From positions 1 through 49,842 of the forward strand of contig JAEUSO010000001.1 in NCBI GenBank assembly GCA_016788605.1: a stretch of DNA of 49,842 nt, in the 5' to 3' direction. The DNA is from Candidatus Kapaibacterium sp. (GTDB taxonomy: Bacteria > Bacteroidota > Ignavibacteria > Kapaibacteriales > NICIL-2). Position 1 is the stretch's first letter; each line of letters begins with the position of its first letter. The position numbers and the translations under genes were made by a program. Below the pieces are notes generated by a model. That model did not search any database. It was not told the DNA's origin and worked only from the letters and a program-made list of their open reading frames with translations. Shown piece by piece: positions 3,436-35,708 of the stretch.

Positions 3436-3441
3436 AGATGC

Positions 3442-4113: not shown

Positions 4114-4145
4114 ATAGCAATAAAAGTTAGATGGGGAATTTATTA

Positions 4146-4565: not shown

Positions 4566-5109
4566 AGTTCAGCAAGAATCCGTCATACATCAGGTGGTGA
4601 ATATCTTCTTCCGTTGATACTTCGATGCATCGCACCATACAATACCATTTGCGGTCGGGCGGCATCATCTCGCTGGCTATTCTGTACACCTCGCGCACCC
4701 TGCCGCTTGCAATATCCCCGGCGGAGAACCCGAACACCGCTTCGTAGGAATTGCTGTGGACGACCTTAATCGCAAGCTTGTTGGGTTTAAGCCCGGTCTT
4801 GGATATTACCCTGTTAAACACATTCTCAAGCAGGGTTGTAATCACACCCAAATTCCTGTTGATTTTGTTGGCGGTGTAGAGTGAGATTTTTTCCTCGATG
4901 AGAGGTTCGTTTTCTTCCTCCGTCAAGAATTTATTCACTGCATCAATGCGCCCGAGTTCAACACCCTGCGTAAATGCAGTAATCATCTTGTTATTTTGCT
5001 CGTCTTCATCAGGCGTAGATTTCTGCCAGTGCAGAATACTATGAATTCCGCTTTGGTGTTGTGCTGTGTGTTGCTGTTGCATTCTACTTGTCCCGTTGTT
5101 GATCCTCAA
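4552..5109 (-). CDS. hypothetical protein
   Basis: 185-aa ORF co-oriented with and coupled to 4146..4565. No motif recognised. Confidence 0.55.
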   Translation of the reverse strand: MRINNGTSRMQQQHTAQHQSGIHSILHWQKSTPDEDEQNNKMITAFTQGVELGRIDAVNKFLTEEENEPLIEEKISLYTANKINRNLGVITTLLENVFNRVISKTGLKPNKLAIKVVHSNSYEAVFGFSAGDIASGRVREVYRIASEMMPPDRKWYCMVRCIEVSTEEDIHHLMYDGFLLNYVNL

Positions 5110-5144
5110 ATTTACTCGTTAATCTTATCGGTTTATAGATAGAT

Positions 5145-5897
5145 TTAATGTAGGGCTGTTCTAAATATCACAGTAACACCCAGTTCTTCTACAAACGTCT
5201 TAAGTTCGTTCAGAGTTGGGCTGATTACTGATTTACTTACTACATAGAGAAGCAAGTTGTTATCGTAAAATCGTTTTTTGTAATAAACAACTTGACCTAT
5301 CATTCTCTGCATGTCTGTTGCACTTAGGTTATCAGAAATTTTTATTTCTATGCCAATTTGCCCGTTACCGACATCTATATCAGTTTTAAGAGCAAGAAAG
5401 CCGCCAACACTGTATTGTCTATGAATATTTTCTTTACCGAATATAATTGCGAGTTTGTCTGCTATATGTTTTTCAACATCTTTTTCTGATGTCAGCCGTC
5501 GCTTGTATATCAAAATATTCAATAGAGCATTTTTTACATTGTCAAGTGTAATAGGATTATATTCTTCCTTTGCAATAACACTTATGTTCTCAATTTTATT
5601 GTTTTGGTAGTCATATCCATTAGTGTCTGATAAGAAAAGTTGATATATATCTTCGGATAACTCAATTTTTATTTTCTTTACAGTACGCTTTCTTCGAACT
5701 ACGCTCAAGTGCAATGCGAGGTTGTCATAAATAAACTCTAACTTCTGTCGGAATATGTCACTTTCCCTTAAAACACGAACTTTACATAGATGGTCAATAG
5801 TTGTAAGTAGTTCGCTTATTTGGGCTTCGGTAGTATGGTCTTGTTCGACCAATTCAAGATACTTACTGATAATAGTTTTCTGAACAACAAACTCCAT
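5145..5897 (-). CDS. hypothetical protein with PD-(D/E)xK nuclease-like C-terminal region
   Basis: 250 aa. The core-like stretch is LKTDIDVGNGQIGIEIKISD (D-x8-10-E-x-K) followed by QRMIGQVVYY. The gene is visibly more AT-rich than its neighbours. It lies 17 nt downstream of the repressor gene. Confidence 0.6.
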   Translation of the reverse strand: MEFVVQKTIISKYLELVEQDHTTEAQISELLTTIDHLCKVRVLRESDIFRQKLEFIYDNLALHLSVVRRKRTVKKIKIELSEDIYQLFLSDTNGYDYQNNKIENISVIAKEEYNPITLDNVKNALLNILIYKRRLTSEKDVEKHIADKLAIIFGKENIHRQYSVGGFLALKTDIDVGNGQIGIEIKISDNLSATDMQRMIGQVVYYKKRFYDNNLLLYVVSKSVISPTLNELKTFVEELGVTVIFRTALH

Positions 5898-5914
5898 ATC
5901 AGTTCCTTCTTGTC

Positions 5915-6301
5915 TTATCGGTTAATGGAGCGTTCAGGCGAAGGTGAGTTTGTAACTCCTGAATCGCTCTGACTTTTATCGGCTACTTGTTGCTCTAACA
6001 ATGATATAATCTTCTCTTTATCTTCCAAACGTGCCTCGTAGGTCTCACGGATGAAGCGTATGAACTCATCACGTTCATATTCAAACTTCTTTACTATCTC
6101 ATCAGGCAGCGGAGCAGGTGCAGTATTGCTATCTAAATAGTATCCTTTTGCCCGTAATCGCTCACGAACGCTTGCACCGATGTTACGGACACCATGAAGA
6201 TAGTTTGATAATTGACCAATAGTCATACCAAGTTCTTTTGCCGCTTCTCCCTTTGTTTTGTACTTGCTGACAAAATCGTTCAATATCTCTAAATCAGTCA
6301 T
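5915..6301 (-). CDS. HTH (XRE/cI-like) repressor without S24 peptidase domain
   Basis: Start at Met 6301 (MTDLEILNDF...). HTH is GEAAKELGMTIGQLSNYLHGVRN. The C-terminal part is a charged coiled coil. It is divergent from the Cro-like gene. Confidence 0.75.
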   Translation of the reverse strand: MTDLEILNDFVSKYKTKGEAAKELGMTIGQLSNYLHGVRNIGASVRERLRAKGYYLDSNTAPAPLPDEIVKKFEYERDEFIRFIRETYEARLEDKEKIISLLEQQVADKSQSDSGVTNSPSPERSINR

Positions 6302-6309
6302 ATTTCTAT

Positions 6310-6349
6310 CATTGTAAAAATTTTTCTTGCTTTCATTATTACATTGTAA
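6310..6349. promoter_or_regulatory. candidate operator sites in the immunity switch
   Basis: The 95-bp divergent intergenic region contains the palindrome TTACA-T-TGTAA (6339..6349) and a related half-site, CATTGTAA (6310..6317). Confidence 0.35.
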
Positions 6350-6396
6350 TAACTTCGCACCGGAGTTCAAATTATACTATTACAAATATACAACAA

Positions 6397-6597
6397 ATGA
6401 GTACTGAAGTTGATTATCGGCTACTGCTCTCGAAGAAGCCATATCGTGGCATAATTAGCGAAATAGCACGCGAGCGTGGGGTAACTCCTACTGCGATATG
6501 CAAGACACTCAACGGCAACAGAACGAAATCAGACCTCGAATTACTGATAAAGCAAAAAATGCGCGAGCGCGAAGCCACCGCCGCCAACCCGGTATAG
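6397..6597 (+). CDS. Cro-like small HTH protein
   Basis: 66 aa. HTH is IISEIARERGVTPTAICKTLNG. It is the first gene of the plus-strand operon, divergent from the repressor. Confidence 0.65.
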   Translation: MSTEVDYRLLLSKKPYRGIISEIARERGVTPTAICKTLNGNRTKSDLELLIKQKMREREATAANPV

Positions 6598-7165
6598 CAT
6601 CCCGACGGTGCGGGTCCTGTACATAGTGCTGCTGGTAACACACTATCCGTATATCATACAACAGGGCTTACAACCCGCACCGTCAGGGTTCTATGAACCA
6701 CATTCAACCAACGTAGTTACAACCTATGAAAACTATTTTTTTTCATCATTCCGGCGGTTTTTTGTACGCAACACGGGTGCAATCCGGGACGCACTTTTTT
6801 GCGGGCATGAAGCGGCGGAATGAGACGGAAGAGCAGTTCAAGCAGCGGATAGAAGCTGCATTTATTCACTAACCGTATAGCACATCATGGCTAAGAAGAA
6901 ATCCGCACCTGCGGAAGCCGAAGCGGACAATCAAACCGCTCCAGAGCCGAAAGCGAAGGGCAAAAAGCGGACAAAGAAAGACGATACGCCCGCACCGCCG
7001 CAGGATTCGGGGGTAATCGTACCAGGTTCGATAGTGTATTAGTTACGCAATAGTGTTCACGTGCTGATGAACACAGGGTGGTGATGGTTCATGCGTGGGG
7101 TATGCCCGCAGCAAGTTCGATTCTTGCACACCCGCTCGATATTTATTCATCATTGATGTAAGCCA

Positions 7166-7423
7166 ATGAAAACCACACACAAAGCCACAAAGCCCCCGCA
7201 GAGGCAAAAGTATCTGCTCTCGCCGCTCGACGTTAGCCGGTTGCTGCCGGGTTTATCTCACCACATAACACGCAAGCTCATGGAGACAGGGGACATAGTC
7301 AGTTTTTACTGCGGCACTCATCTAAAAACCACTACCGATGCAGTTGAAGCGTTCAAAGTGCAACTAAGCGCAGGCAAAGTATCACTTCCGGGGTTTATCG
7401 AGCCAGTTCGGAGGCGCAAATGA
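7166..7423 (+). CDS. excisionase-like / HTH_17-type DNA-binding protein
   Basis: 85 aa. LLSPLDVSRLLPGLSHHITRKLMETGDIVSF ... AVEAF follows the MerR/excisionase-type winged-HTH pattern. Confidence 0.55.
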   Translation: MKTTHKATKPPQRQKYLLSPLDVSRLLPGLSHHITRKLMETGDIVSFYCGTHLKTTTDAVEAFKVQLSAGKVSLPGFIEPVRRRK

Positions 7424-7617
7424 CAGGTACAGGTCACCTTACACGAATGATAGCATGGTTCATCATGCAGTGTATTGTTCACAACAATCAGTTCTTGGCG
7501 CGTGTGGCACACCGGATACACCGTTGTATCTCGCGCACTCCGGCTTATATCGCTGCCGAGCAGTGTTTGTCGTTCATAGCATCACGCATAGGGGGTAAGA
7601 ATGCCAAGGAGCAGTAG
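7420..7617 (+). CDS. hypothetical small protein
   Basis: 65-aa ORF. ATGA overlap with the upstream gene and a 17-nt overlap with the downstream gene. No motif. Confidence 0.35.
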   Translation: MTGTGHLTRMIAWFIMQCIVHNNQFLARVAHRIHRCISRTPAYIAAEQCLSFIASRIGGKNAKEQ

Positions 7618-8281
7618 CGATTTCTATACACAATCAGTGAGTGTCAAAGTTCCAGAATCTCTTGATAACTACCGCGAAATAGGAACATTGACGATGTGGG
7701 CGCATTACCTCTGTCTGTACCTGCATACATACGCAGAGAAACGACGTGATGGTCTTTTCACTCACAAAGTACGCAAGGTGTCGGATGATACTGGAATGCC
7801 ACTTGAAACTATCTACACCGCATTAGATGATCTTTCACGGATACGCTATTCCACAACCGAACAGCCGTTGGTTGTCTTTGATGCCGGCTTGATATTCCTA
7901 CCTGACACGGCTTTCCTGTATTTACAGAAGAACTTCACCTATCGCAAACAGCACTTGGCGAATACCCTGAAGATGTTTTCAGATTTTCCGGGTGCGGATA
8001 AATCACAGCCGAATCAGGCGTTCGTGGCATGGCAAAAATTCTTTGAAGAAATGCTGTTCGAGATGCGGGAGGATACCAAGTTCGGGGAACATCAAAAGAA
8101 GGTTCAGGCGGAGGCAAAAGTAGCCGCATTTGCACCGTCAAGTTTTATCAATCAAACACCGTACCAATCATCACCCGCGCCGCCCGGATTACTGATGAAT
8201 TTGCCCCATACCGTACCGAGAAATGGCGTGTTGGATGAAGAGAATAACGATTCCGACGAGCAAGATGACCACAGAACATGA
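7601..8281 (+). CDS. putative replication initiator / replisome organiser
   Basis: 226 aa with an acidic tail. The central part looks like a winged helix (GMPLETIYTALDDLSRIRY). Its stop codon lies inside the first unit of the iteron array. Confidence 0.5.
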   Translation: MPRSSSDFYTQSVSVKVPESLDNYREIGTLTMWAHYLCLYLHTYAEKRRDGLFTHKVRKVSDDTGMPLETIYTALDDLSRIRYSTTEQPLVVFDAGLIFLPDTAFLYLQKNFTYRKQHLANTLKMFSDFPGADKSQPNQAFVAWQKFFEEMLFEMREDTKFGEHQKKVQAEAKVAAFAPSSFINQTPYQSSPAPPGLLMNLPHTVPRNGVLDEENNDSDEQDDHRT

Positions 8282-8486
8282 CGTACCGATTTCCCAAGAT
8301 GACGTACCGATTTCCCAAGATGACGTACCGATTTCCCAAGATGACGTACCGAATTGGTGCATCATCTCCACATGACGTACCGAATTGGTGCATCATCTCC
8401 ACATGACGTACCGAATTGGTGCATCATCTCCACATGACGTACCGATTTTCCAAGATGACGTACCGATTTTCCAAGATGACGCACCG
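8278..8486 (+). repeat. iteron array (candidate origin of replication)
   Basis: Eight exact copies of ATGACGTACCGA plus one degenerate copy (ATGACGCACCG), all in the same orientation. Units are 3 x 21 bp, 3 x 31 bp, then 2 x 21 bp. Confidence 0.8.
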
Positions 8487-8553
8487 TTTTTTGACTTTTT
8501 CGCACATCTAATCTATGAATCTATTAATCTATAGAATAGATACTAAATACCTT
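8487..8553. other. AT-rich region with (AATCTATN)x3, candidate DNA unwinding element
   Basis: A T-run followed by AATCTATG-AATCTATT-AATCTATA (8510..8533), immediately after the iterons. Confidence 0.45.
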
Positions 8554-13494: not shown

Positions 13495-13814
13495 TGAGTA
13501 CAGAACAAGCATCACAACCAATAGACATCGCCAACTGGGCGATTATGGAATTGATGGGACACCGAACCGTAGCCGGTTACGTGACGAGTGTTATCATCGG
13601 TTCGCACGTGATGATTCGCATTGACATTCATTCAAGCGAAGAATCATTTGCACCGGTGACACAATTCTACAACCCGTCGGCTCTCTATTGTCTCTCGCCT
13701 ACAACCGAAGAGATTTGCCGACGGTACGTTGCCAACAATTCATTCACAAAGCCAGTGTACAGCTATCAACTTGCACTGCCTCAACCTGGTATAACGGAGT
13801 TCGATGATGAGTAA
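13494..13814 (+). CDS. hypothetical phage protein
   Basis: 106 aa. TAATG overlap with the methyltransferase gene. The ELMGHRTVAGYV...IRIDI pattern recalls a conserved phage protein of unknown function. Confidence 0.6.
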   Translation: MSTEQASQPIDIANWAIMELMGHRTVAGYVTSVIIGSHVMIRIDIHSSEESFAPVTQFYNPSALYCLSPTTEEICRRYVANNSFTKPVYSYQLALPQPGITEFDDE

Positions 13815-14052
13815 CCGGAAGAAGAAAAACATCGTCGTTTTGATGAAGGCATGCAACATTATTAATATTGGGATTATGGTCTTAGTAGTGTTACCATACC
13901 TGCTGCATTGTGTTAGCAACGACACTGCACAACATAACACGCTGGCAGTATGGATAGGTCGCCTGTCAATCATCTATCTTTTAGTATTCACTGGATTAAA
14001 GATAGAGGTGATTCTCTCGACGTATCGAGACATATATAAAGGAGTGAAGTGA
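13804..14052 (+). CDS. small two-TM membrane protein, paralog A
   Basis: 82 aa. Clearly homologous along its whole length to the next ORF (shared VSNDTAQ.NT.AVWIG.LSIIY). Confidence 0.65.
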   Translation: MMSNRKKKNIVVLMKACNIINIGIMVLVVLPYLLHCVSNDTAQHNTLAVWIGRLSIIYLLVFTGLKIEVILSTYRDIYKGVK

Positions 14053-14297
14053 TGAGTAACTCCAAGCAAAAAATCTTCGTAGCATTCATAAAGGCATTCA
14101 GTTTTATAGACATTGGCATTACTGTATTTATGATGTTGCCCTACCTGATGCATTCTGTTAGCAATGACACTGCACAACAGAACACGGTGGCAGTATGGAT
14201 AGGTTACCTTAGTATCATATATATCATGCTATTAACTGGGTTGAAGTTAGCGACGTTTACCGAGGCGCATCGAGACATAGATAAGGGAGTAAAGTGA
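14049..14297 (+). CDS. small two-TM membrane protein, paralog B
   Basis: 82 aa. Tandem duplicate of 13804..14052 with overlapping stop and start (GTGATGA). Confidence 0.65.
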   Translation: MMSNSKQKIFVAFIKAFSFIDIGITVFMMLPYLMHSVSNDTAQQNTVAVWIGYLSIIYIMLLTGLKLATFTEAHRDIDKGVK

Positions 14298-15788: not shown

Positions 15789-17417
15789 TTAGGTGCAATC
15801 CGGGCGCACACGTACCGTTTCCTTGCAATTCCAACGCTTGCGGAGAACTGTAACCGGTACGTCCGCATCAGTTTGTTTAGCAGGGCGGAGATACCAGTTA
15901 TCGTATGTTTTTTCGGTGTTACAGCAGCACTTCTTTTTGCCGGTGGAGGTACGGCAAGGCAATACCACCACTTTCACGCACGAGAGCGCACAACGCGCCC
16001 CGTAGCCGCCTTCTGCGCTCTGTGTAGTGCTGTTCCATGTGTAGCCAAAAAGGTCATCGAGGTACAGGGCAAAGAAGTACGTGCCGGGTTCGAGCGTTGT
16101 TGTGATAATTGCATTCACTGCGAGCTGTTCCACGGGAAGTGATGCGCCCAAGAGGTGATTGCAATTATTCGTGCTGTCTATGCGCTGTTCTTGGTCTAAG
16201 AACGTGCGTGTTTCAGCCAATGCCTGTTTAGAATACTGAAACCGGAATGTCATGTCGCGCCCGTTGCCGGTAACGCCCATGAAGCGGTTGTAGCCCAACG
16301 CAGAATGCTTATCATATTCACCGAGCCAATCGTAGCCCGTTTCAGTATTGATCCTGTTCAACTTGTCGTAGTTCCCGCTGTTCCGGTCTTGCTCGAAAAC
16401 GTCTGCAAAATTCACCGGTACATGATACATGTTCAATCCCGTAGGTTGCTCGAATGCAAGCGGCAACACCGAGGGATTGTTTTTCAGGAACATATTCCCC
16501 ATGGCTGTACGCAGCTCATCCATCGGGCAAAGGGATTCATTCGTTCGTGCAGGGCGCACGTACCGGAGGGATACGTTTGCGTTCTGACTGATGCGAATGC
16601 CGATACCATTGCCAAGTTCCCATGTGTCGAGGAATGGAACGTACAAGTTCACGTGCGTGGCTTTGCAACGCTCGATAACGATTGTCTGCTCCTTGGCGCG
16701 GCGCACCGGAAGCGTACCGCACATTTCGCGCTGTTCGTGGTTCTGCAACACATATTCATTCACCAAATCAACGAGCGTCCGGCGGCGGCGGGTGCCATTC
16801 AAAACTTCGTACCACCACGCCACATCCCAACGGCGAGGAAAGCAGTATTGAGCTATGCGAGACCAGTAGCGTTTGTTGTTCACACCACAGGCGGGCTGTC
16901 CTTGTAGCGAATCAGTCCATGAATCATACCGTTCTTGACACGTTACGTTGTCCTGCGGGCATGGAAATGGGTTATCCCAGTCGTAGATTGGGGGCGACCA
17001 TGTTTCTTGCTCCTGATATTGTTCTGTGTCATCGGCGGTGATTTCCACCGATGTGCCGGATGCGGTTGGCGGAGGTGGAGCGGGTGGTAGTGTCTCTTCC
17101 GTCGTCTCGTCTGTTTTTGTTATCGTGCGTGTGGTAGTGTTGTTGTCTGAACACGTTTTACACGGCGATGAGAGATACCGTGTGATACGTCCGCCGCTCC
17201 GCTCGAATATCTCATACACAGGTCCATCGGCAGTATTGGACTTAAAACGAACGCGCCGGTTGGGGTCGGATGCACTGCCATCATCATTTGTACCCCAACG
17301 GATTGGATTGCGCCCGGTTGCGCCGCCCGCACGGGTGATGAATCGCCCTTTGCTGTCGCAGCCCGTTTGCGAGCCGTTGCGAAGCGCGTCACGTAGTGAT
17401 GATGCGTTGCGAATCAT
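15789..17417 (-). CDS. large late protein with C-terminal cysteine-rich DNWYLRP module
   Basis: 542 aa from the ATG at 17417, 1 nt after the upstream stop. The C terminus, GKKKCCCNTEKTYDNWYLRPAKQTDADVPVTVLRKRWNC, is paralogous to part of 31133..31510. Confidence 0.7.
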   Translation of the reverse strand: MIRNASSLRDALRNGSQTGCDSKGRFITRAGGATGRNPIRWGTNDDGSASDPNRRVRFKSNTADGPVYEIFERSGGRITRYLSSPCKTCSDNNTTTRTITKTDETTEETLPPAPPPPTASGTSVEITADDTEQYQEQETWSPPIYDWDNPFPCPQDNVTCQERYDSWTDSLQGQPACGVNNKRYWSRIAQYCFPRRWDVAWWYEVLNGTRRRRTLVDLVNEYVLQNHEQREMCGTLPVRRAKEQTIVIERCKATHVNLYVPFLDTWELGNGIGIRISQNANVSLRYVRPARTNESLCPMDELRTAMGNMFLKNNPSVLPLAFEQPTGLNMYHVPVNFADVFEQDRNSGNYDKLNRINTETGYDWLGEYDKHSALGYNRFMGVTGNGRDMTFRFQYSKQALAETRTFLDQEQRIDSTNNCNHLLGASLPVEQLAVNAIITTTLEPGTYFFALYLDDLFGYTWNSTTQSAEGGYGARCALSCVKVVVLPCRTSTGKKKCCCNTEKTYDNWYLRPAKQTDADVPVTVLRKRWNCKETVRVRPDCT

Positions 17418-17418
17418 G

Positions 17419-17754
17419 TTAATCGTAGAGTGAGGGTAATACAACGCCGCCAAGTGCCGCCCCGCCCGCAACCCACAGCGGATCAATCGAGCGCGTCATG
17501 CTGAACGACATTACCGTGCCTACCGCCGCACCGAACAGCAATCCTTGCCAGTTGAACGCCATGCCACCGTCGGCAAGCCCGTCATTGAGTGATTGTACAG
17601 GTTCTTCGTTCTTCACACCTCTAAGTTCGTAGCTCATAGCGCGGTACATTCGCCCCGTGCTGTCGGCAATGATATACCCGTCCCCGGATTGCCGCACAAT
17701 TCGGTACGGTTGATTGTTACCGCGATAAACGACCGCTTGATTGATGCTATACAT
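17419..17754 (-). CDS. small protein with C-terminal glycine-zipper TM segment
   Basis: 111 aa. The hydrophobic tail is WQGLLFGAAVGTVMSF...WVAGGAALGGVVLP. Confidence 0.6.
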   Translation of the reverse strand: MYSINQAVVYRGNNQPYRIVRQSGDGYIIADSTGRMYRAMSYELRGVKNEEPVQSLNDGLADGGMAFNWQGLLFGAAVGTVMSFSMTRSIDPLWVAGGAALGGVVLPSLYD

Positions 17755-20700
17755 ACGCTTTTCCTATAATGTATGAGTTAGATTTTTGCTTGATACCAAA
17801 GATTGGGAACGGCGACCCGATAACTCCGTCGCGGTGTTTCAGGAGCGTTGCAACGCCACTGTGAACGTGGACGTTGAAATCAACCATGTTTGCAAGTCGC
17901 GGGAATCCTTCATACTGCCGTCCGTCCTTCGTGGAAATCAAGTTGAAGATAAACGAGACCGCCGGAAAATCTTCCATGAGTGCAAACACATCTTCCTGCT
18001 CGACGTGCCAAAATTGCAGCGAATCAATGATACAGAACATAATGTCGGGATGGTTACGCAGCGTGCTACGCAGTCCGTTGATGGATAGCGAATCATGGAA
18101 GAGAATATCCTTTGTTATCCGCATACGTTTTGCCCGTTCGCCGACACGTCCGTCTTTAACTTTTTCTTCAGTAAGCACTACGAGCGTCTTACCGTTGCGG
18201 GCAAGGTCGTCTGCAATCATCAATATGAGCGATGATTTACCCGAACCCGGAAGCCCCCACGTTATGCCCGTGAATCGTCGTTTGAGTGTACCGAACAGCT
18301 TTGCAGTGCGGAACAGTCGCACAGGCGTTAATTGCACAGCCACAGCGTCGCGCAGCGTGTAGAATTGCTCTGCGGCGCGGTCGTTCAATAGTTCATGCTC
18401 GATGCAGAAGGGTTCAACCGTTTCCGTTCTTGATTCAATACAAATCTCGTCGTTGGTAGGCACGTCGGTTGCCACGTCGGATGCAGCGATGATTGCATCG
18501 TTAGCGATCCTATCACGGAGTCCAAATAATCCCTGTTGGTCGTTACTATTCAGATTGCCTCCGCGTTCGCGCAGTGCAAGTAATTCGCGTTGCACAGCAA
18601 GCACAACATCGGTGTATTTAGCAACTACCTTTTCGCGGAGTTCCGGTGTGTACTTATCAGCGTGTGCGGCTATCTCATCCAGCTTGCGTTCCAACGCTTT
18701 TTTCGCTTCGGCAAGTTCTTTTTCCTTCTCGCGCAGGGCTTCATCATACATCTGTTGTCCTGCATCGCGTCCGGCGTAGTTGTTCAGGTTGAGCGGCGTT
18801 TCAGGTGAGGATTCTATCTGTCCGAACGGAAACCGGTTCAGAATAACTTTTTCGGCAAACGTACTGAACTCATTACTGTTTGTGAATCGCTTGCCTTGTG
18901 TTTTGTAATTCGCCCGCAGGTAGTCGTACATTTCGTTTTGATGCTGCCGCGTCAAATCAGGATATGCCTCTACAACCTCGCCAATCCATCGTGCCATGCT
19001 TTCTACGTCTTTATACTCGTCGCTGGCACGGCTGAACGTGGCTAAGTCGGCAATTACCTTGCTCTCGCTGTCAAGGAGTGATAGCAGAAACACCGTTCGG
19101 CATGATTTATCATACAGAGAACGGCATGTCTCCTCGATTTCCTTTTTCGTCCGCGCCTTGCCACGGAGCAGACGCAGGTACTTTGCATTCTCGGCGTTGC
19201 TTTGAGCGCGGGTGCTTGCGTTGTCGGTATAGGCAATTGCGATTGCCTCTTCTTCGGTGATGTTTTGAAACACGAAAGCCGGGAAATACTCTTCGTTCAG
19301 TATCCGCAATGCTGATTCTCTGTGATGACCGCCAAGCACGTAGTAAAACCCATCAGGAGCAAGCCACAGTTTAAGGGGGTCAAGTTTCTTCCTGTCGAAG
19401 TTGCGAACAATTTCATCAACCTTATCTTTCGAGAAATCAGATCTTGGTTGAAATCGCCGTGCATCAGTCCGCACCAAGTGTGCATAAATCATTTGCACAC
19501 CCGAATCTACTGATTGCGTTGGTGGTACAGGTGGTGGTGATTCCGGTTGTGGTGGTGTCGGTGTTGCTTGCTCCGGTGTCTCTTGGATGGCTGTTCGTTT
19601 GGATTGGTTTGCCTGTTGCTCGCGCAGAAACTTCGTCGAAATATAGGTTGCTTCTTTCGAGCGTAAATTACCTTCGTCATCAATGTATTGCGAGCCGGTG
19701 CGTACCGATGGTTCGGTATTTCCTTGCAATGCAATCAAGTCATCAACATACATCACGAACCATTCGTCTTTATAGTCATAGAGACGCACAACATCTACAA
19801 TTTTATCACCTACTTGTTGGCGTGACAACTGTGCGCCAAAGTATGAGCCGTACTGTCTTTTAATAGATTCTTGAGCTTCTTTATCAATGGTGCTTGACCA
19901 TTGCAGCACTTTAATATACTTCGAGCTGTGTATATCGCCTGTGTAGTCAATATGGTGAGATGCACTTCGAGCGATAACCATTTTCCCGCTACGAATCTCG
20001 CTTTCCAAAACCTTCCGGTTCACAGTAGTACCACTACCGGCATACATGTTTATTTTACGCCCTGCTTCGCGCTCTACGGTTTCTTTCTTATCAATCGAAT
20101 CCACATTCACTATTTCACCAGCCGCCACAACATCATCAACATAGGCATAATACACGCCGTGCGTTGCAATGACAGGGATGTTACGGTACGTTGTCACGAT
20201 TCCACGGCGACCGTAGCTAATAGCAACAGCATTGTAGTATTCCTCTTCAATAGTATTATGTATGCCCTTGTATCGCTGATGCTGCTTTTCCTTGAATGCC
20301 AACCCTAATAACTCATTTCGTCCAACCCAGTAGGGCTGCATTACCCTGTATGTTTCGTCTTCATTCGGAGCAAGGTTGTGCAAAGAACTCAATGGTAATT
20401 CAAGACCTTGTTTGAACTCGCCGGATACTCTTCGTTTGATGTTACGCTGCATGATTATACCAACAACCCTACCGTCCATCCATTCACGTTGCAACACATC
20501 TGCGCGCACTTTTGTATTCATCTTGCTCATGTCAATGCGACGGGATTTTTTACGTTCCTCATCTTGCTTTGCAGAACTCTTGATTTGCTCTACCAGCGAT
20601 ACATCCTTTGTGAGCGGAATACGCTCTGCATGAATAGTAAATCCCCGACCCCACGAGCCGACTGTTTCCATCGTGGGTATTCCCTGCGATAGCAGCTTTG

Positions 20701-21328
20701 CCCTACGTGCATTCTTATTGGCATTGGTGTTACCATTGTATGTTTCGTATCCATCGCTGTACTTACTCTTTTCGACAAGGAGAAAGGTTTTATCTGTTCT
20801 TTTCCATGAGTTGCCCCACGCATCAGTAACAATATCTCCCGTTGTTGCTGTTTCCAACCACTGCACTGTTGTTCCCGTTGCTGATACTGGCTTTACTTCT
20901 TCAACCTCTTCCGGTTCAACAATCTCTTCCGGTTCAACAATCTCTTCCGGTTCTTCTGCCGGAATTGTTACGCTCTCTTCTGAACGCATCGAAAACAAAT
21001 CATCTTGATTGACAACAGCAGGGAGCGCATCGAATGGGCGAGTGCGCTCCTCTGGTGTTGGCGCAGTTGGTGAAGGGGGGGACACCGACCGTTTTTCCGT
21101 TTTTAGTGTAGCCGCACGCAACTTGGTAACTTTATGCCCTGCCTTTATATCATCCCATGATATGCCCGCAAACGTGCCGTCGGCAAACTCAACGTATCCG
21201 CTTGTGGCGGAGACGGCTCGAAGCCAACCGTTTTTTCCTCGTGCATATACGTCCATCCCTACCGTATAGGTAGTACGTCCTATGGTTGCTTTGGTATATC
21301 CGTTCTGATATTTTTTGGGCAGTTGCAT
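17747..21328 (-). CDS. 1193-aa multidomain protein: ParB/Srx-like domain plus C-terminal RecA/DnaB-like P-loop ATPase
   Basis: ParB-type motif: FQPRSDF...DPLKLWLAPDGFYYVLGGHHRESAL (GGHHR at 19319..19333). ATPase motifs: Walker A GLPGSGKS (18233..18256), Walker B-like FCIIDSLQ, and LKHRDG near the C terminus. An acidic EEPEEIVEPEEIVEPEE repeat lies near the N terminus. Confidence 0.75.
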   Translation of the reverse strand: MQLPKKYQNGYTKATIGRTTYTVGMDVYARGKNGWLRAVSATSGYVEFADGTFAGISWDDIKAGHKVTKLRAATLKTEKRSVSPPSPTAPTPEERTRPFDALPAVVNQDDLFSMRSEESVTIPAEEPEEIVEPEEIVEPEEVEEVKPVSATGTTVQWLETATTGDIVTDAWGNSWKRTDKTFLLVEKSKYSDGYETYNGNTNANKNARRAKLLSQGIPTMETVGSWGRGFTIHAERIPLTKDVSLVEQIKSSAKQDEERKKSRRIDMSKMNTKVRADVLQREWMDGRVVGIIMQRNIKRRVSGEFKQGLELPLSSLHNLAPNEDETYRVMQPYWVGRNELLGLAFKEKQHQRYKGIHNTIEEEYYNAVAISYGRRGIVTTYRNIPVIATHGVYYAYVDDVVAAGEIVNVDSIDKKETVEREAGRKINMYAGSGTTVNRKVLESEIRSGKMVIARSASHHIDYTGDIHSSKYIKVLQWSSTIDKEAQESIKRQYGSYFGAQLSRQQVGDKIVDVVRLYDYKDEWFVMYVDDLIALQGNTEPSVRTGSQYIDDEGNLRSKEATYISTKFLREQQANQSKRTAIQETPEQATPTPPQPESPPPVPPTQSVDSGVQMIYAHLVRTDARRFQPRSDFSKDKVDEIVRNFDRKKLDPLKLWLAPDGFYYVLGGHHRESALRILNEEYFPAFVFQNITEEEAIAIAYTDNASTRAQSNAENAKYLRLLRGKARTKKEIEETCRSLYDKSCRTVFLLSLLDSESKVIADLATFSRASDEYKDVESMARWIGEVVEAYPDLTRQHQNEMYDYLRANYKTQGKRFTNSNEFSTFAEKVILNRFPFGQIESSPETPLNLNNYAGRDAGQQMYDEALREKEKELAEAKKALERKLDEIAAHADKYTPELREKVVAKYTDVVLAVQRELLALRERGGNLNSNDQQGLFGLRDRIANDAIIAASDVATDVPTNDEICIESRTETVEPFCIEHELLNDRAAEQFYTLRDAVAVQLTPVRLFRTAKLFGTLKRRFTGITWGLPGSGKSSLILMIADDLARNGKTLVVLTEEKVKDGRVGERAKRMRITKDILFHDSLSINGLRSTLRNHPDIMFCIIDSLQFWHVEQEDVFALMEDFPAVSFIFNLISTKDGRQYEGFPRLANMVDFNVHVHSGVATLLKHRDGVIGSPFPIFGIKQKSNSYIIGKAYV

Positions 21329-21711: not shown

Positions 21712-21939
21712 TTACCATTTGCCTGCGTCGCAATGCTCTACATGTTTCGTGATACTGTGTTCGCCTGTGAATTTGGTTTTCTCACTCACCGGACATCCGC
21801 AGAGTGAACACGTATCATTGATGTTGTTTGTACACGTTGAGCATATTGACATTCTTTTGCGTGATAATGCCGTTTCGGGCAGAAGTTGCGCTGTGACATA
21901 CTTCACCGCTCCAGTTGCATTATGACGGATTTCCTTCAT
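21712..21939 (-). CDS. small cysteine-rich (zinc-ribbon-like) protein
   Basis: CSTC..x9..CSLCGC ... HVEHC. Start at the ATG at 21939, 1 nt after the upstream stop. Confidence 0.5.
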   Translation of the reverse strand: MKEIRHNATGAVKYVTAQLLPETALSRKRMSICSTCTNNINDTCSLCGCPVSEKTKFTGEHSITKHVEHCDAGKW

Positions 21940-21940
21940 G

Positions 21941-22444
21941 TTAAGAATCATTGTAGTAACTCCTAATTTTGGTTTTTAATCGTGGATAGAGATACGCTAT
22001 TGCCAGTGCTATCACCACTGCCACTAATGATGTTGTTACGATACGCACAACATTGTTTTCAACCCTCTGCATGAACGACGGGCGTTCTGCGGGCGGTATC
22101 AGTTGTACGATATGCGTTGTGTCGCGGTAGATAATCCGAACCGTGTCCGGCTGCACATGCACATAGAACCGTTTTTCCTGCGGATAGTATTGAATACTCA
22201 TCACCGTATCGCGCCCGCGAAGCCGCAGTGCTGCAATCATGGAATCAGTGATGGTATGGGGAATCAAGTTGCTGTCTATCACTACGGGCGGAACTACCGT
22301 GATAATGCTGTCTTTCACTACCAATTTTTCACGTTGTATCACCGTGCCGCCACAACCTGCGCTCCACGCACCAAGGAGCAACACAAAAAGCGTTAGAATA
22401 ACCGTAGCCATCCAGTACAGTAAGAGTTTAGCGAAACGCTGCAT
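21941..22444 (-). CDS. candidate unimolecular spanin (lipoprotein signal plus C-terminal TM)
   Basis: The ATG at 22444 is preceded by AGGAGG. N-terminal sequence is MQRFAKLLLYWMATVILTLFVLLLGAWSAGC (lipobox-like). The middle is beta-rich. The C-terminal TM is VTTSLVAVVIALAIAYLY. Confidence 0.5.
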   Translation of the reverse strand: MQRFAKLLLYWMATVILTLFVLLLGAWSAGCGGTVIQREKLVVKDSIITVVPPVVIDSNLIPHTITDSMIAALRLRGRDTVMSIQYYPQEKRFYVHVQPDTVRIIYRDTTHIVQLIPPAERPSFMQRVENNVVRIVTTSLVAVVIALAIAYLYPRLKTKIRSYYNDS

Positions 22445-23036
22445 ACAGACCTCCTGCAAGCACAAATGCACCTGCGATAATCAAACCTGTATTTGTTTCA
22501 TCCGAAGCGGGAGGCACCGGTATAGGTGTATCCTCAACGTGAATGTACTGTGTGTTCAGTTGGCGCATCCGGGCATAGCTGCGGTTTGTTTTTGTACCAA
22601 GCAGAACAACAGATTCGTTAGAGCAGCCGTAGCACTTGATATGATCCGAAACATTGCCCTCGACGGTGTAAATTCCTGTTGTGTCGCCACCGATGACGAT
22701 ACCGGCGTGGTTTGGCACTTGCGGGTTATTGACATACACGAATATCGAACCAACGGCGGGCGTTGAATCAACACGGATGCCACGGCGTTTTGCCTCGTCT
22801 AATATCCCGACGGTCGAGAGCGTGAACGGCAATGGCACACTGACATTTGCAAGGCGCGAGGCATGACGAAGCACAGCCGATACCAACCCGACGCACCACG
22901 GCTTGCCCGTGACGTTTGTATAGTCCTCATCAAAGAGATACTGATAACACGCAGTGTTGTTCTCGGTGCAGTTGCGTTTGCGCCATTCGCGGGCATATTC
23001 TAATGCCACTTGCTTTATGTAGTCGCCGTAGTTCAT
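22428..23036 (-). CDS. CHAP/NlpC-P60-type peptidoglycan hydrolase with C-terminal TM anchor
   Basis: GKPWCVGLVSAVL (catalytic Cys context) and NHAGIVIGGDTTGIYTVEGN (His context). The hydrophobic tail is GLIIAGAFVLAGGLYAAF. Confidence 0.7.
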   Translation of the reverse strand: MNYGDYIKQVALEYAREWRKRNCTENNTACYQYLFDEDYTNVTGKPWCVGLVSAVLRHASRLANVSVPLPFTLSTVGILDEAKRRGIRVDSTPAVGSIFVYVNNPQVPNHAGIVIGGDTTGIYTVEGNVSDHIKCYGCSNESVVLLGTKTNRSYARMRQLNTQYIHVEDTPIPVPPASDETNTGLIIAGAFVLAGGLYAAFR

Positions 23037-23734: not shown

Positions 23735-24063
23735 TATTCTTTGGGTATTTCTGTTTTCACAAGTGCGCGGGTTGCATTCAGTGCGTCAATCTGTGTGCGG
23801 TCGCCGTCAAGGATCAATTGTTTTATTGCTTCATTCACAGCCGCATCCGTGCAGCCAAGTTCGTTGTAGCGGCGGCGGCGGCGTTGCTGATAGGTTTCGG
23901 GCGGCGGAACAAGCGACGCTTCGATATGTGCGATAGCTTGCGCCTTTGTGCCAACCTCGCGCCCACAGTAGTAGCGGTTGCCGCTCTCATCCTCGAAGCA
24001 CCATACTCCGTCGAAAGCGTTACCGTTCTCATCTTTCGATTTCCATGTTAGGTTGAGTGGCAT
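23734..24063 (-). CDS. hypothetical protein
   Basis: 109 aa with an RRRRR patch, coupled to the fibre gene. Confidence 0.55.
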   Translation of the reverse strand: MPLNLTWKSKDENGNAFDGVWCFEDESGNRYYCGREVGTKAQAIAHIEASLVPPPETYQQRRRRRYNELGCTDAAVNEAIKQLILDGDRTQIDALNATRALVKTEIPKE

Positions 24064-25130
24064 TAGTAAAAAATCCTTTCTATCATTAGCATACTTCCCG
24101 ACATTATCGTAATAGAATGACCACTGTTTGTAGGCGCAAATTTTAGTTCAAACGTATCCATACCTGATGAGTAGAGATAACCTGATATTAAAAGTGTATG
24201 AAACACGTTGCTTGCACTAAAATCATTGTCATATTCAATCCCATAGGTCGAGTTAAGGTTAATTCCTGTTGAATTTATTCTGCATCCTTTGTGAACACCA
24301 TAGTCATCAGAACCTGTGCATGTTGCCAGTATCCTATATGGCGATGGTGTACCACTACACGACAATTGAAAGTTGAAGGGAATCTGTGTTGGATTTGCGA
24401 TTTTAATAAACACTATTGCGAATACGTGGAGGTTCATTAGTGTACCGTCTGATGTAGGAACTACGCTCATGCCAATAGTAGCCGGCGTTGATGTTCCTGT
24501 TATAGATGGCTCACTTGTAACTACTCGTTTTCTACAATTATCTTGTGATAACAGTGCAAATCCCCATGGAGACAATCCCGCGTAGCCATTTCCATTATTC
24601 TTCTGTGATGTGTCTTGTTTGCCGGAGAGTGCGGTAACTAACCCGCTTATATCTGATTGACTATGAGAGTGTGATGCTGCCGCCACGCCTGACAGTTTCG
24701 AGAAGGCGATTGCTGCCGATGCTGATATGTCTGCATTAACGATTGTGCCGTCAGAGATTTTAGCGGATGTGATTGCACCGTCGGCAATGTCACCGGTTGC
24801 GATAGTAGCGTCGGCGATTTTAGCGGATGTGATTGCACCATCGGCAATATCACCGGTTGCGATAGTAGCGTCGGCGATTTTAGCGGATGTGATTGCACCA
24901 TCGGCAACCTTAGCCGTCGTAACAGAACCATCGGCAACACCGGAGCTTCCGGGGCGTTGCGCCGCTTCAAGGAGACCATCCGCACCCAATGTAGCCACAC
25001 CGTTAGCCACTGCCGGAGCAAGGTTTGCAACATTGCCTAACCCAACATCAGATTTTTCAATAGTGACGGCAGTTCCAGATTTCCCATTAACTGCTACAAT
25101 ACCCCCCGGTACAGCGATAAACGGTATCAT
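24063..25130 (-). CDS. tail-fibre-like receptor-binding protein
   Basis: GLGNVAN at the N terminus. Repeats DGAITSAKIADATIATGDIA, then ASHSHSQSDISGLVTAL. These are motifs typical of phage fibre proteins. The C-terminal domain is beta-rich. Confidence 0.75.
   Translation of the reverse strand: MIPFIAVPGGIVAVNGKSGTAVTIEKSDVGLGNVANLAPAVANGVATLGADGLLEAAQRPGSSGVADGSVTTAKVADGAITSAKIADATIATGDIADGAITSAKIADATIATGDIADGAITSAKISDGTIVNADISASAAIAFSKLSGVAAASHSHSQSDISGLVTALSGKQDTSQKNNGNGYAGLSPWGFALLSQDNCRKRVVTSEPSITGTSTPATIGMSVVPTSDGTLMNLHVFAIVFIKIANPTQIPFNFQLSCSGTPSPYRILATCTGSDDYGVHKGCRINSTGINLNSTYGIEYDNDFSASNVFHTLLISGYLYSSGMDTFELKFAPTNSGHSITIMSGSMLMIERIFY
24741..24907. repeat. 60-bp tandem repeats inside the fibre gene
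   Basis: Units 24771..24830 and 24831..24890 differ at 2 positions. Partial copies flank them on both sides. Confidence 0.85.
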
Positions 25131-25759
25131 ACTGCCCTCCCGATATATCCGCGTAATGCCATACGTCCTAACTGCCCCAAGTATCGTTTGCGTTGATAGA
25201 ATCCGTCGCCGTCGCGCTGATTGCCGGTTCCAGATGCGGTATTGCCCTCGTCGTTAATCACCCAAAGATTGTTGATTTTTCTACGAACGCGCCCAATGTG
25301 TCCACTTGCACTTCGTGAGAACTTCCATACAATCAAATCACCCTCCTGTACCTGTTGTTGCTTTGCCTTGCGCCCTGTATTCATCGCCCAGTTGTAAATG
25401 CCGTTTGCAAGTGCCGACCGGATGAATGTCATGGCAACACCGCATAGTTTTGATGCTTCTTGAAAGGTCCACACTATTACTGCCGCACACCACGGATTAC
25501 CCTCGCGCAGTCCTGTTGATTGCAAATACTGCGATACCATCCGTCCGTCGTTTTTCCCGGTTGCTTCGCGCACACCTGTTTGCTGTGCAGAGATGTCAAA
25601 CGAACGCGCCCACACGCAACTATCTATGCGTATTTCGTAACGTATCGGGGATGCAATACTCTTAGCGGAACAAAGCAGGATACACGGCAAGAACAATAAT
25701 CCCAACCATGATTGCAATCGCCTTGAATATCCCGACCAGAGATGTTGTGTCGCGCTCAT
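25127..25759 (-). CDS. CHAP/NlpC-P60-type peptidoglycan hydrolase with N-terminal signal/anchor (endolysin candidate)
   Basis: NPWCAAVIVWTF and SASGHIGRV...DEGNT motifs. Hydrophobic N terminus LGLLFLPCILLCSAKS. The start is uncertain: the ORF extends to 25795 from a TTG, and it overlaps the holin-like gene. Confidence 0.7.
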   Translation of the reverse strand: MSATQHLWSGYSRRLQSWLGLLFLPCILLCSAKSIASPIRYEIRIDSCVWARSFDISAQQTGVREATGKNDGRMVSQYLQSTGLREGNPWCAAVIVWTFQEASKLCGVAMTFIRSALANGIYNWAMNTGRKAKQQQVQEGDLIVWKFSRSASGHIGRVRRKINNLWVINDEGNTASGTGNQRDGDGFYQRKRYLGQLGRMALRGYIGRAV

Positions 25760-30439: not shown

Positions 30440-31096
30440 TTACTTATTAAGAAAATACACTACTGTTCCAACTGCCGCCGCAGTTGCAACAAGCGAGAGA
30501 ACAAATGTTGTTGTGCTGATACCATCATCGCAATCGCACGGCGCATCTGCATACACAACAGGAGGTGGAGCCGGATACGTTGTCGTGGTCGTAGTGGTTG
30601 TGTCGCCGCTTCCTGTATCCACAGCGTTAGCAAGCCCACGCACACGGTCTGCCATCGTCGGGTTTGATACAGGAGTACCGTTTTGGTCACATTCTATCTC
30701 GCTTGATTCACCCTTGCATGTCCGCACCTGCTTCACAACCGGCACTTGCGGGTCATCGGGTGATACGCGGTTTGGGGTAAGCCACCACCGTTCGCGGATG
30801 ATTTCTTCCTCGCAATCAGGCGGGCAATCTTCCGTGCATGGTGAGGCAGGAAGCATACCACCAAAAATTGGTGTAGCACCAAGACCGGAAAGGTTGCGTT
30901 GTTGAAACCGTACTTGCGGTTCTCGCAGCCATCTGTTTTTCACTTGTTCGGGTACGAGCTTGTCGCACTCCGCATTGCACTTGATATTGCCTTTGCAACG
31001 AGTATAACAATCGCGCCACTGGCTCTCCCACGATTGTTGCAGATGTTCGGCAGTCGTGGCGGTATCAGCACCGCGTTTTCCATAATCAATAAGCAT
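30440..31096 (-). CDS. cysteine-rich protein with poly-Thr tract and C-terminal TM
   Basis: 218 aa with many CxxxC-type pairs. RWWLTPNRVSPDDPQVPVVKQVRTC is related to the DNWYLRP module. It also has a TTTTTTTT tract and the TM helix FVLSLVATAAAVGTVVYFL. Confidence 0.6.
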   Translation of the reverse strand: MLIDYGKRGADTATTAEHLQQSWESQWRDCYTRCKGNIKCNAECDKLVPEQVKNRWLREPQVRFQQRNLSGLGATPIFGGMLPASPCTEDCPPDCEEEIIRERWWLTPNRVSPDDPQVPVVKQVRTCKGESSEIECDQNGTPVSNPTMADRVRGLANAVDTGSGDTTTTTTTTYPAPPPVVYADAPCDCDDGISTTTFVLSLVATAAAVGTVVYFLNK

Positions 31097-31132: not shown

Positions 31133-31510
31133 TTACATACGTTCTGCGTACTTCGAGCCGCATCCGCTCAACGCAGCACCCTTGCATTTTCCACCGCAGT
31201 TACACGCAACCCGGTCATTGAGCGATGAACCGCATTTGCATCCGCGAACGCGGTCATTCAATGCTTCATCAGGGCAGCGCGGGCGCACTTGTGTAGCTGT
31301 GTCACGGCAGACGTACCGGCGGCGAACAACAACGACTTGAACGTCATTCGGCGTTTGTTGCTGTGGTCGCAAATACCAGTTGTCGTTTTCGGATTGTGTT
31401 GTGCAGCAACACTTCTTGCCCTTTGGCGTTGATGTTGCTTGCAGTGTCGAGCCAAGTATTTGTCCTTGCCCTTGCAGGTTTGTTAAAGGTATGATAGGCA
31501 TTAGTTCCAC
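31133..31510 (-). CDS. small cysteine-rich protein with DNWYLRP module
   Basis: 125 aa. KGKKCCCTTQSENDNWYLRPQQQTPNDVQVVVVRRRYVC is paralogous to the C terminus of 15789..17417. Confidence 0.6.
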   Translation of the reverse strand: MELMPIIPLTNLQGQGQILGSTLQATSTPKGKKCCCTTQSENDNWYLRPQQQTPNDVQVVVVRRRYVCRDTATQVRPRCPDEALNDRVRGCKCGSSLNDRVACNCGGKCKGAALSGCGSKYAERM

Positions 31511-35494: not shown

Positions 35495-35707
35495 ACGTTC
35501 TTTATACACCTCAACTATTTTTTCTTGAATCTCACGGTTCATCGCATCATTCAGTGCGTTCATCTTCTTCGTGTATTTACGCCTAATATGCGATATAGCA
35601 CGTTTCAATCCATTTTCGTGCTGTTTTCGCAACTTGTCGCTTTTATGGTTTTGGTAGTACACTGCGTTGTACTGGCTGCGATCCTCGGATGAATAGCAAT
35701 CGTTCAT
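35489..35707 (-). CDS. small basic protein next to attR
   Basis: 72 aa from the first ATG (MNDCYSSEDRSQ...). The ORF extends to 35764 from a GTG. It is Lys/Arg-rich and helical. Confidence 0.45.
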   Translation of the reverse strand: MNDCYSSEDRSQYNAVYYQNHKSDKLRKQHENGLKRAISHIRRKYTKKMNALNDAMNREIQEKIVEVYKERP

Positions 35708-35708
35708 A

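Follow-up and report, generated by a model that had tools for sequence, protein, structure and literature searches.

The 49,842-nucleotide (nt) window analysed here, the start of contig JAEUSO010000001.1 of Candidatus Kapaibacterium sp., contains an integrated, phage-like element, and in the late gene block of that element a single open reading frame (ORF; 17747..21328, minus strand) encodes a protein of 1193 amino acids (aa). Sequence comparison and structural modelling indicate that its C-terminal half combines a ParB/Noc/KorB-like module (aa ~612-925) with an ATPase of the RadA/Sms type (aa ~986-1193), the two being joined by a linker that carries a conserved Q-x-x-L-F peptide. The architecture, the shuffling of the modules among relatives and the position among late genes match the definition of a polyvalent protein. 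The reading that we favour, and to which we give about an even chance, is that of a virion-associated, DNA-bound polyvalent-type late protein that acts on the phage genome at or just after entry.

The two modules and the peptide between them

The frame is ATG-initiated and uninterrupted, and could be extended upstream by 22 codons at most before the previous stop. The initial annotation of this DNA had proposed one gene that fuses a ParB/Srx-like domain to a RecA-type ATPase. Since both modules also lie within single ORFs on independent metagenomic contigs (the related proteins P0001, P0009, P0099, P0138, P0064, P0087 and P0095), the fusion is not a frameshift artefact. We estimate at about 1e-11 the probability that the 535 codons without homologues would stay open by chance at 48% GC. 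Our own translation places the motifs quoted in that annotation at the same coordinates, namely DPLKLW...RESAL (aa 650-674, 19307..19381), GGHHR (aa 666-670, 19319..19333), GLPGSGKS (aa 1025-1032, 18233..18256), FCIIDSLQ (aa 1098-1105, 18014..18037) and LKHRDG (aa 1163-1168, 17825..17842), with the EEPEEIV repeat running from aa 125 on and matching an 18-nt tandem repeat at 20897..20953.

The nucleotide-binding domain of the ParB-type module has three pocket boxes: R-F626-Q627-P-R629 (box I), G667-H668-H-R670 (box II) and N703 (box III). Residues F626, Q627, R629, G667, H668, R670 and N703 are conserved at 95-99% among 106 homologues. The module matches a ParB-like family of PHROGs (E=1.2e-11) and, by sequence, the structures of Noc and Spo0J (E=7e-5); taken on its own, the Pfam ParB_N match is sub-threshold (17.3 bits against a cutoff of 26.3). 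We modelled aa 596-1193 with AlphaFold from a 31-sequence alignment (mean predicted local distance difference test, pLDDT, of 85.8). In this model the ParB part has a pLDDT above 90 and reaches a Foldseek probability of 1.0 to Noc (7ol9, 7nfu, 7ng0), to ParB with CTPgS or CDP (7bnr, 6sdk) and to KorB (8qa9). The alignments extend over 208-242 columns, to ParB, Noc and KorB chains of ~200 aa that contain the N-domain and the DNA-binding domain, and the modelled all-helical domain occupies the position of the latter. Two long antiparallel helices follow (aa 856-888 and 895-923), forming a predicted coiled-coil hairpin. The ParB domain called in the initial annotation is thus recovered by PHROG, by sequence matches to known structures and by Foldseek alike.

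That annotation had offered three functions for the protein, of which a virion-delivered polyvalent protein fits the comparative data best, an unconventional packaging enzyme is kept below as a minority reading, and partition is the least supported, because the element lacks a ParA and integrates, which makes partition unnecessary. The element has no second Walker-A ORF that could be a ParA partner; a palindromic parS was not identified either, the array at 8255..8511 being made of direct repeats. The module also bears on a different proposal, which follows those made for DdrB-like ParB and Osa: the protein could be a ParB-type nuclease or anti-defence effector that degrades or nicks host or competitor DNA, with the ATPase as an accessory translocase. 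The ParB domains of polyvalent proteins have indeed been discussed as nucleoside triphosphate-regulated DNases (PMC5512222), and there are relatives with a ddrB-ParB domain at the equivalent position. However, the module resembles the CTP-clamp type of Noc, Spo0J and KorB, with a helical domain and a coiled coil following, the Pfam scan of the protein gave no match to ddrB-ParB (PF18763), and no nuclease catalytic motif was found in the module beyond the shared arginine pocket. We therefore regard an effector of this kind as a long shot.

The C-terminal domain retains Walker A (G1025-S1032, with K1031), the catalytic E1054/E1055, Walker B (D1102), the invariant K1134 and a K1164-H-R1166-D-G motif corresponding to RadA KNRFG. 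This catalytic set maps to RadA Walker A, E124/E125, K251 and R253. In a 20-sequence alignment of the family, which also served as the profile A1, G1025, G1030-K1031-S1032, E1054-E1055, D1102-S1103, K1134, G1141, D1150, K1164 and R1166 are invariant or nearly so, with the K and R of KHRDG conserved at 90% or more. The A1 profile matches bacterial RadA (5lkm, 8rxc) with E=8.5e-26 over RadA residues 45-266, the whole ATPase domain, and single-copy RecA at only about 1e-5; the ATPase also matches the phrog_6891 profile (E=1.1e-16). RadA is the best Foldseek match in the PDB as well, with a root-mean-square deviation of ~3 A over ~200 residues, and is followed by DnaB, KaiC and RAD51 paralogues; in the viral library BFVD the matches are DnaB-like helicases and polyvalent proteins. 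Neither FtsK/HerA nor terminase appears in the Pfam or PHROG matches, among the 60 best PDB profile matches listed, or among the top 50 Foldseek matches in the PDB and BFVD. The assignment to the RecA superfamily, and to its RadA/DnaB/KaiC types rather than to terminases, had been made in the initial annotation and holds. A stand-alone member of this ATPase family is labelled 'predicted ATP-dependent serine protease' in one source, which we take to be the old COG name for RadA/Sms.

Within RadA KNRFG, the lysine is a trans-acting piston and the arginine is the arginine finger (PMC11612176), and the conservation of both in KHRDG would imply an oligomeric motor. The 1193-aa protein has no CxxC anywhere and only 25 residues after KHRDG, so that it has neither zinc finger nor Lon-like domain, both of which are required in E. 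coli RadA (PMC4357459). We therefore describe the domain as core-only and RadA-like, and not as a RadA orthologue. It had been called the only P-loop NTPase of the late region, and a search for Walker-A motifs, made both in the predicted genes and in the six reading frames, agrees, finding this ORF alone within the element; the second match in the window is the host FtsH, outside the element.

The linker between the two modules (aa 927-985) is disordered in the model (pLDDT below 50) and contains Q931-Q-G-L-F935-G. A motif of this type is conserved in ~95% of the 106 homologues between variable flanks, with Q (68 homologues) or E (35) at its first position, L in 90 and F in 99, against a background density for the pattern of ~1.2 per 1000 aa. 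It lies at most 15 residues from the C-terminus in 10 of 100 homologues, and one protein terminates exactly at ...ALF. The bacterial consensus for binding the beta sliding clamp is QL(S/D)LF, with variation tolerated (PMC9690074). Clamp binding by the peptide is, on this resemblance, a lead rather than a finding. The disordered placement, the conservation and the C-terminal cases fit a cytoplasmic docking peptide better than they fit a capsid-vertex motor.

The N-terminal half is of a different nature. The initial annotation recognised no motif in the first ~600 aa, and our searches agree in that aa 62-600 have no detectable relatives: for aa 151-571, a word-index search found none, and neither phmmer nor blastp detected any in the 150 top-ranking representatives. 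No internal repeat was found in this half, and its single-sequence AlphaFold model is unusable (pLDDT 33.8). The first 61 residues resemble the N-terminus of 411-419 aa ORFs in prophages of Chlorobiota metagenome-assembled genomes (MAGs; 39% identity, E about 3e-9), and these ORFs lie immediately upstream of ATPase-bearing proteins of 1331-1675 aa, with a 1-nt overlap. A suspected similarity between aa 1-61 and the 111-aa protein encoded downstream was not significant (z=2.4).

Relatives, phage SSIP-1 and the role of the protein

With HMMER, an exhaustive search across 1.84 billion representatives yielded 918 matches, which fall on two separable modules. A word-index search with the whole protein and a look-up of the exact product had both come back empty; given the 918 relatives, the blank in the former is probably due to swamping by low-complexity words. 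No close relatives of the whole protein were found by DNA pattern in viral contigs or genome contigs. Proteins that contain the ParB module number in the hundreds and range from 350 to 5203 aa. The ATPase is found C-terminal to LPD1 and ddrB-ParB (P0037, P0038, P0041, P0120, P0144, P0146), to an SNF2 helicase (P0026, P0085) and to ParB_N (P0009), and the two modules occur in both orders. The 2574-aa P0001 unites an SNF2-type helicase, ParB_N, a Zeta toxin and the ATPase, and in locus L013 a 2274-aa protein with ParB_N, LPD1 and SNF2 (P0005) is directly followed by a stand-alone ATPase of 207 aa (A1 profile, E=1.8e-38). Whichever module the fetched loci were related through, all those that continue beyond the ParB-module protein have an ATPase of the family, and the accompanying domains differ from locus to locus.

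The late arrangement of the window is syntenic with that of loci L003, L005, L008, L016-18, L023 and L025, and the collinear order in the relatives comprises CHAP/SLT lysins, 139-aa and 236-aa families, a DUF6171-like Cys protein, the giant protein and a small partner. The survey of neighbourhoods that the initial annotation had proposed thus finds both modules recurring, shuffled, in the late blocks of related dark prophages. Their hosts include Chlorobiota MAGs and Hymenobacter, with a more distant match on a contig of a Cytophagales MAG and one partial stand-alone ATPase protein in Flavobacterium filum. A survey of polyvalent proteins lists ParB-superfamily domains and an SMS/RadA-type ATPase, the latter specifically for Bacteroidetes, with the SMS/RadA domain assigned for the most part to conjugative elements or plasmids (PMC5512222).

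Three observations on individual relatives are added here. Directly upstream of a 916-aa protein with ParB-C and the ATPase, the 35-kb viral contig IMGVR_UViG_3300031787_000433 (L008) has at 2362..7494 ORFs of 747, 502 and 459 aa, which are another variable cargo at the same position; the 502-aa ORF has an AAA+ (Mg-chelatase/MoxR-like) ATPase match and the other two match nothing. A tailed-phage context for P0009 was considered and rejected, as its 'Phage_tail_APC' neighbour is a fibre-assembly-like protein beside a fibre-repeat protein of the window type, and the neighbour thus shows no tailed phage and does not exclude a packaging role. The 'undetectable' Flavobacterium prophage fF4 is unrelated, being a Mu-like myovirus with a terminase.

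Among deposited phages, clear members are found only in Salisaeta phage SSIP-1 (NC_017983), which is tailless. Its gp43, of 2319 aa, carries a methylase (methyltransferase) and the ParB module (34% identity over 290 aa, E=1e-41), the latter ending in a Q-x-x-M-F motif (QTSMF at the aligned position). Three genes upstream, in the late block, gp40 (24775..25737) belongs to the ATPase family (phrog_6891, E=2.6e-79; A1 profile, E=5e-55) and is the only clear Walker-A ORF of the 43.8-kb genome. Both proteins bear the database annotation 'structural protein', and according to PMC4124505 gp40 was predicted to be the packaging ATPase. Judged by its sequence, gp40 is a member of the RadA/Sms-like family and not of FtsK/HerA. 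Iterative profile searches from the late proteins of the window reached no other SSIP-1 protein, and tblastn of all predicted window proteins against SSIP-1 gave, beyond gp40 and gp43, only weak matches with E of 0.006 or worse. Since only these two genes are linked, we do not call the element SSIP-1-like beyond them and make no claim of whole-virus kinship.

The prediction for gp40 keeps alive the view that the RadA-like ATPase is the packaging or condensing NTPase of a terminase-less, SSIP-1-like lineage, in which the ParB module would recognise and load DNA, by analogy with a small terminase or pac-site binder, or would condense it. What stays constant in the locus is the ATPase, and it is the sole Walker-A protein of the element, just as gp40 is the only clear one in the complete SSIP-1 genome. 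The initial annotation had noted the lack of a visible terminase, and no late ORF of at least 120 aa matches a capsid, portal, tail or terminase family in Pfam or PHROGs; structural genes or a terminase are likewise not recognisable in the fetched neighbourhoods of nine related loci. There is also a precedent for a RecA-fold hexameric packaging motor in cystovirus P4. Against this, profile and structure both place the family with RadA, DnaB and KaiC and not with FtsK/HerA (A32-type) or terminases, a divergent terminase could escape the Pfam and PHROG scans, fusion or adjacency to helicase, methylase or toxin domains of 1000-2500 aa is awkward for a motor at a portal vertex, and the conserved clamp-binding-like peptide suggests a cytoplasmic role. 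A packaging motor seems to us unlikely, though it deserves to be kept as a minority view.

It is also conceivable that the protein stays in the cell and is not packaged, serving as a replication, recombination or maintenance factor in which a ParB-type loader and a RadA/DnaB-like helicase work on the DNA of the element itself while it replicates lytically, for instance in recombination-dependent replication or the resolution of concatemers or circles, with the host clamp recruited through Q-x-x-L-F. ParB/Noc/KorB and DnaB/RadA folds are both modules of DNA metabolism, clamp-binding-like motifs are typical of replication and repair proteins, no replicative helicase of the element's own is recognisable, and the iteron-like array at 8255..8511 could be a loading site. 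However, the gene lies deep in the late lysis and structural block and not among the early genes of the plus strand, its homologues in SSIP-1 carry virion-protein annotations, replication proteins do not typically shuffle with toxins, methylases and LPD domains, and the element, which has no ParA partner, integrates and so needs no partition. We consider such a factor improbable. Gene position and module type agree less well with the replication and the nuclease readings than with the virion-associated polyvalent protein that we favour.

In the favoured reading, the protein would be made late and travel with the viral DNA. With the FQxR, GHxR and N residues of its pocket, the ParB/Noc/KorB-like module would hold a nucleotide, probably CTP; dimerised by the coiled-coil hairpin, it would close around DNA like a clamp or a bridge and so keep the protein tethered to the genome of the phage. 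The Q-x-x-L-F peptide of the disordered linker may dock on the host beta sliding clamp (DnaN), which would link the entering genome to the replication or repair machinery of the host. The RadA-type ATPase, which can be expected to be an oligomeric motor because all catalytic residues are present, including those for the trans-acting piston lysine and arginine finger, might form a ring or a helical DNA translocase, or act as a branch-migration motor, that helps the incoming DNA to circularise, recombine or begin replicating, or strips proteins off it. The N-terminal ~60-aa domain and the orphan 500 aa are presumed to serve particle incorporation or to hold an unrecognised effector.

Several points weigh against this picture. 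The 'structural' label is a database annotation of distant SSIP-1 relatives, and no MuF, portal, zincin or other peptidase domain, as packaged polyvalent proteins typically carry, was found. The N-terminal half is uninterpretable. As the Lon-like domain, the hexamer scaffold of RadA, is absent, ring formation is uncertain, and unlike in usual clamp-binding motifs the first position of the peptide is E in one third of homologues. Finally, neither the element nor SSIP-1 shows a further ATPase that could be recognised as a packaging enzyme; packaging is thus left without an assigned protein, and this keeps the packaging alternative alive.

A broader scheme would combine parts of these readings. 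A widespread and as yet uncharacterised temperate phage lineage of the Bacteroidota-Chlorobiota (FCB) group, with the window element, many metagenomic contigs and possibly SSIP-1 among its members, and with neither terminase nor FtsK/HerA, might package or condense its genome by a RadA/DnaB-type motor loaded by ParB-CTP, with the complex co-delivered and handing the genome to the replisome through the beta-clamp peptide. We offer this as an improbable speculation.

The integrated element and its other genes

The element is bounded by two exact 51-bp direct repeats that bracket 33.6 kb (Table 1), the left one being formed by the 3' part of a tRNA-Asn gene at 2145..2219. Outside the repeats lie host genes for a heptosyltransferase, a GFO/IDH oxidoreductase, LigB, an amidotransferase and FtsH, the last with 77% identity to FtsH of Candidatus Kapabacteria and Bacteroidetes MAGs. 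The early genes, on the plus strand from 6.4 to 15 kb, include two DNA methyltransferases and a Pol-beta-like nucleotidyltransferase. The late block, on the minus strand from 35.3 to 15.2 kb, contains the gene for the 1193-aa protein together with two CHAP lysins, a fibre-repeat protein and several small membrane proteins; its two longest other ORFs (486 and 542 aa) have no sequence match in the PDB. We describe the element as temperate, terminase-less, phage-like and probably tailless. A conjugative element was rejected, since there is no second ATPase: the element has one Walker-A ORF only, and no VirB4, coupling-protein or relaxase-type ATPase.

Table 1. The 1193-aa protein, its parts and the borders of the element, with positions in the window
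Feature	Position	Strand	Basis or remark
Whole ORF, polyvalent-type late protein	17747..21328	-	1193 aa and stop codon
Small N-terminal domain, aa 1-61, probably beta-rich	21146..21328	-	strands predicted at low confidence
Pro-rich acidic low-complexity linker, aa 72-150, EEPEEIV/EPEEIV repeat	20879..21115	-	no secondary structure predicted
Orphan region, aa 151-575	19604..20878	-	no homologue, internal repeat or confident fold
ParB/Srx-fold nucleotide-binding N-domain, aa 612-706	19211..19495	-	homology, conservation, model
All-helical domain, aa 707-850, at the position of the ParB/Noc/KorB DNA-binding domain	18779..19210	-	
Coiled-coil hairpin, aa 851-925, candidate dimerisation element	18554..18778	-	pLDDT above 90
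QQGLFG, aa 931-936, pattern [Q/E]-x-x-[L/I/M]-F-[G/D], candidate beta-sliding-clamp-binding motif	18521..18538	-	
Core-only RadA/Sms-like RecA-fold ATPase, aa 986-1193	17750..18373	-	profiles, alignment, model, Foldseek
Downstream gene for a 111-aa protein	17419..17754	-	overlaps the ORF stop by 8 nt
attL, exact 51-bp direct repeat, 3' part of tRNA-Asn(GTT), left end of the element	2174..2224	+	
attR, second copy of the 51-bp repeat, right end of the element	35776..35826	+	
Tyrosine integrase of the element	2413..3435	-	phrog_1, E=2e-37

The 111-aa protein encoded directly downstream has a Gly/Ala-rich hydrophobic C-terminal stretch, which a crude hydropathy scan did not score as a transmembrane helix. 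A homologue lies directly downstream of the giant P0001 in locus L003, which makes this gene a conserved partner. Two genes upstream of the ORF, a 79-aa Cys-rich protein (21712..21951) has weak DUF6171 and double-zinc-ribbon matches, and a DUF6171 gene holds the equivalent position in L005. The two CHAP-domain peptidoglycan hydrolases (22428..23036 and 25127..25759) are paralogous, one with a C-terminal and the other with an N-terminal hydrophobic anchor; the family recurs in all related loci, and the arrangement suggests virion- or membrane-associated lysins. The 355-aa fibre-repeat protein (24063..25130) contains a 30-nt (10-aa) tandem repeat at 24740..24935 that explains all its PHROG 'tail fiber' matches, which are therefore not evidence of a tail; in L006 a repeat protein of this type adjoins a fibre-assembly-like chaperone. 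Further along the late block, iterative profile searches find a common domain in proteins of 122 aa (31133..31501), 218 aa (30440..31096) and 542 aa (Cys-rich, 15789..17417), which may be an anchor for spike or vertex proteins.

In the early region, a 245-nt tandem duplication (13790..14279, 73% identity) has given two paralogous proteins of ~81 aa (13804..14052 and 14052..14297) with two transmembrane helices each. The array at 8255..8511 lies between early ORFs of 226 and 177 aa and consists of about ten direct, iteron-like copies with the core ATGACGTACCGA(T/A)TT, within repeat units of 21 bp (GATGACGTACCGATTTCCCAA) or variants of 31 bp; the array may be a replication origin or a place where the ParB module loads. 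At 2391..2413 and 35707..35729, on the inner side of each att site, a 23-nt repeat TATCGGTGCAAT(G/T)TCGGTGCAAT (itself a doubled TCGGTGCAAT) probably marks arm-type integrase or excisionase binding sites. Some 9 kb beyond the element, a 1594-aa protein (45021..49805) has fn3, PhoD_N and Pur_ac_phosph_N matches. Proteins of 1719-1841 aa with the same Pfam pattern lie directly upstream of a lysozyme gene at the left edge of the late stretch in L012 and L013, a resemblance that could be a coincidence or reflect a host surface protein or a second-element remnant.

Significance and comparison with known systems

The existence of such a protein is unsurprising in itself, as the polyvalent class of phages and plasmids has already been described. 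What appears to be new is that the 'packaging ATPase' family of SSIP-1 is of the RadA type, that the ParB module ends in a conserved Q-x-x-L-F, and that the gene can serve as a marker for a dark prophage lineage of the FCB group that lacks a terminase. The ATPase family of SSIP-1 supplies the RadA-type domain that also ends polyvalent proteins in many related dark prophages, so either the packaging ATPase of SSIP-1 has been mis-assigned or a new kind of packaging motor exists; were the ATPase truly a packaging motor, the significance of the protein would rise sharply. The complete nucleotide pocket and the clamp-binding-like peptide suggest that viruses may use a ParB-CTP switch at entry, and such switches may couple to the host sliding clamp. 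The gene also marks a coherent set of prophages of 30-45 kb in Kapabacteria, Chlorobiota, Hymenobacter and Flavobacterium-type hosts, and because their structural genes go unrecognised by current family libraries, it offers a handle for finding and classifying them.

Set against the CTP-dependent DNA clamps ParB, Noc and KorB (7ng0, 7ol9, 7bnr, 6sdk, 8qa9), the module shares the nucleotide-binding fold with FQPR, GxxR and N and the helical domain that follows. It differs from them in having GHHR rather than GERR in box II, in the coiled-coil hairpin that replaces the C-terminal dimerisation domain, in being embedded in a 1193-aa protein, and in having neither a ParA partner nor an identified parS. 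The ATPase resembles RadA/Sms (5lkm, 8rxc) in Walker A, the EE pair, Walker B, the TK(D/E)G loop and a KNRFG-type motif (KHRDG), whereas it has no N-terminal C4 zinc finger and no C-terminal Lon-like domain and is part of a phage protein rather than a housekeeping repair enzyme. With TerL and the FtsK/HerA (A32/P9-type) packaging ATPases, the latter known from tailless phages that contain a membrane, it has in common that it is the sole P-loop ATPase of its element and that the homologue in SSIP-1 has a virion-protein annotation and a predicted role in packaging DNA; however, no sequence or structural similarity to them was detected and it has no nuclease domain. The peptide is of the Q-x-x-L-F type seen in beta-clamp-binding proteins and lies, as in these, in a disordered segment, which is C-terminal in some homologues. 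SSIP-1 shares the ParB module and the ATPase family with the window ORF, but has as separate proteins what is here one polypeptide.

Comparison with the surveyed polyvalent proteins brings out differences of type and place. The ParB domain is of the Noc/Spo0J/KorB-like ParB_N type rather than the DdrB-like ParB highlighted for phages, the RadA-type domain stands in the late operon of a prophage, and half of the window protein is orphan sequence. Like them, it is a large multi-domain polypeptide that is encoded by a prophage among late genes and joins at least two unrelated modules, ParB-type and RadA-type ATPase, to an orphan N-terminal half, and its homologues reshuffle these modules with SNF2 helicase, methylase, LPD1, ddrB-ParB and Zeta toxin.

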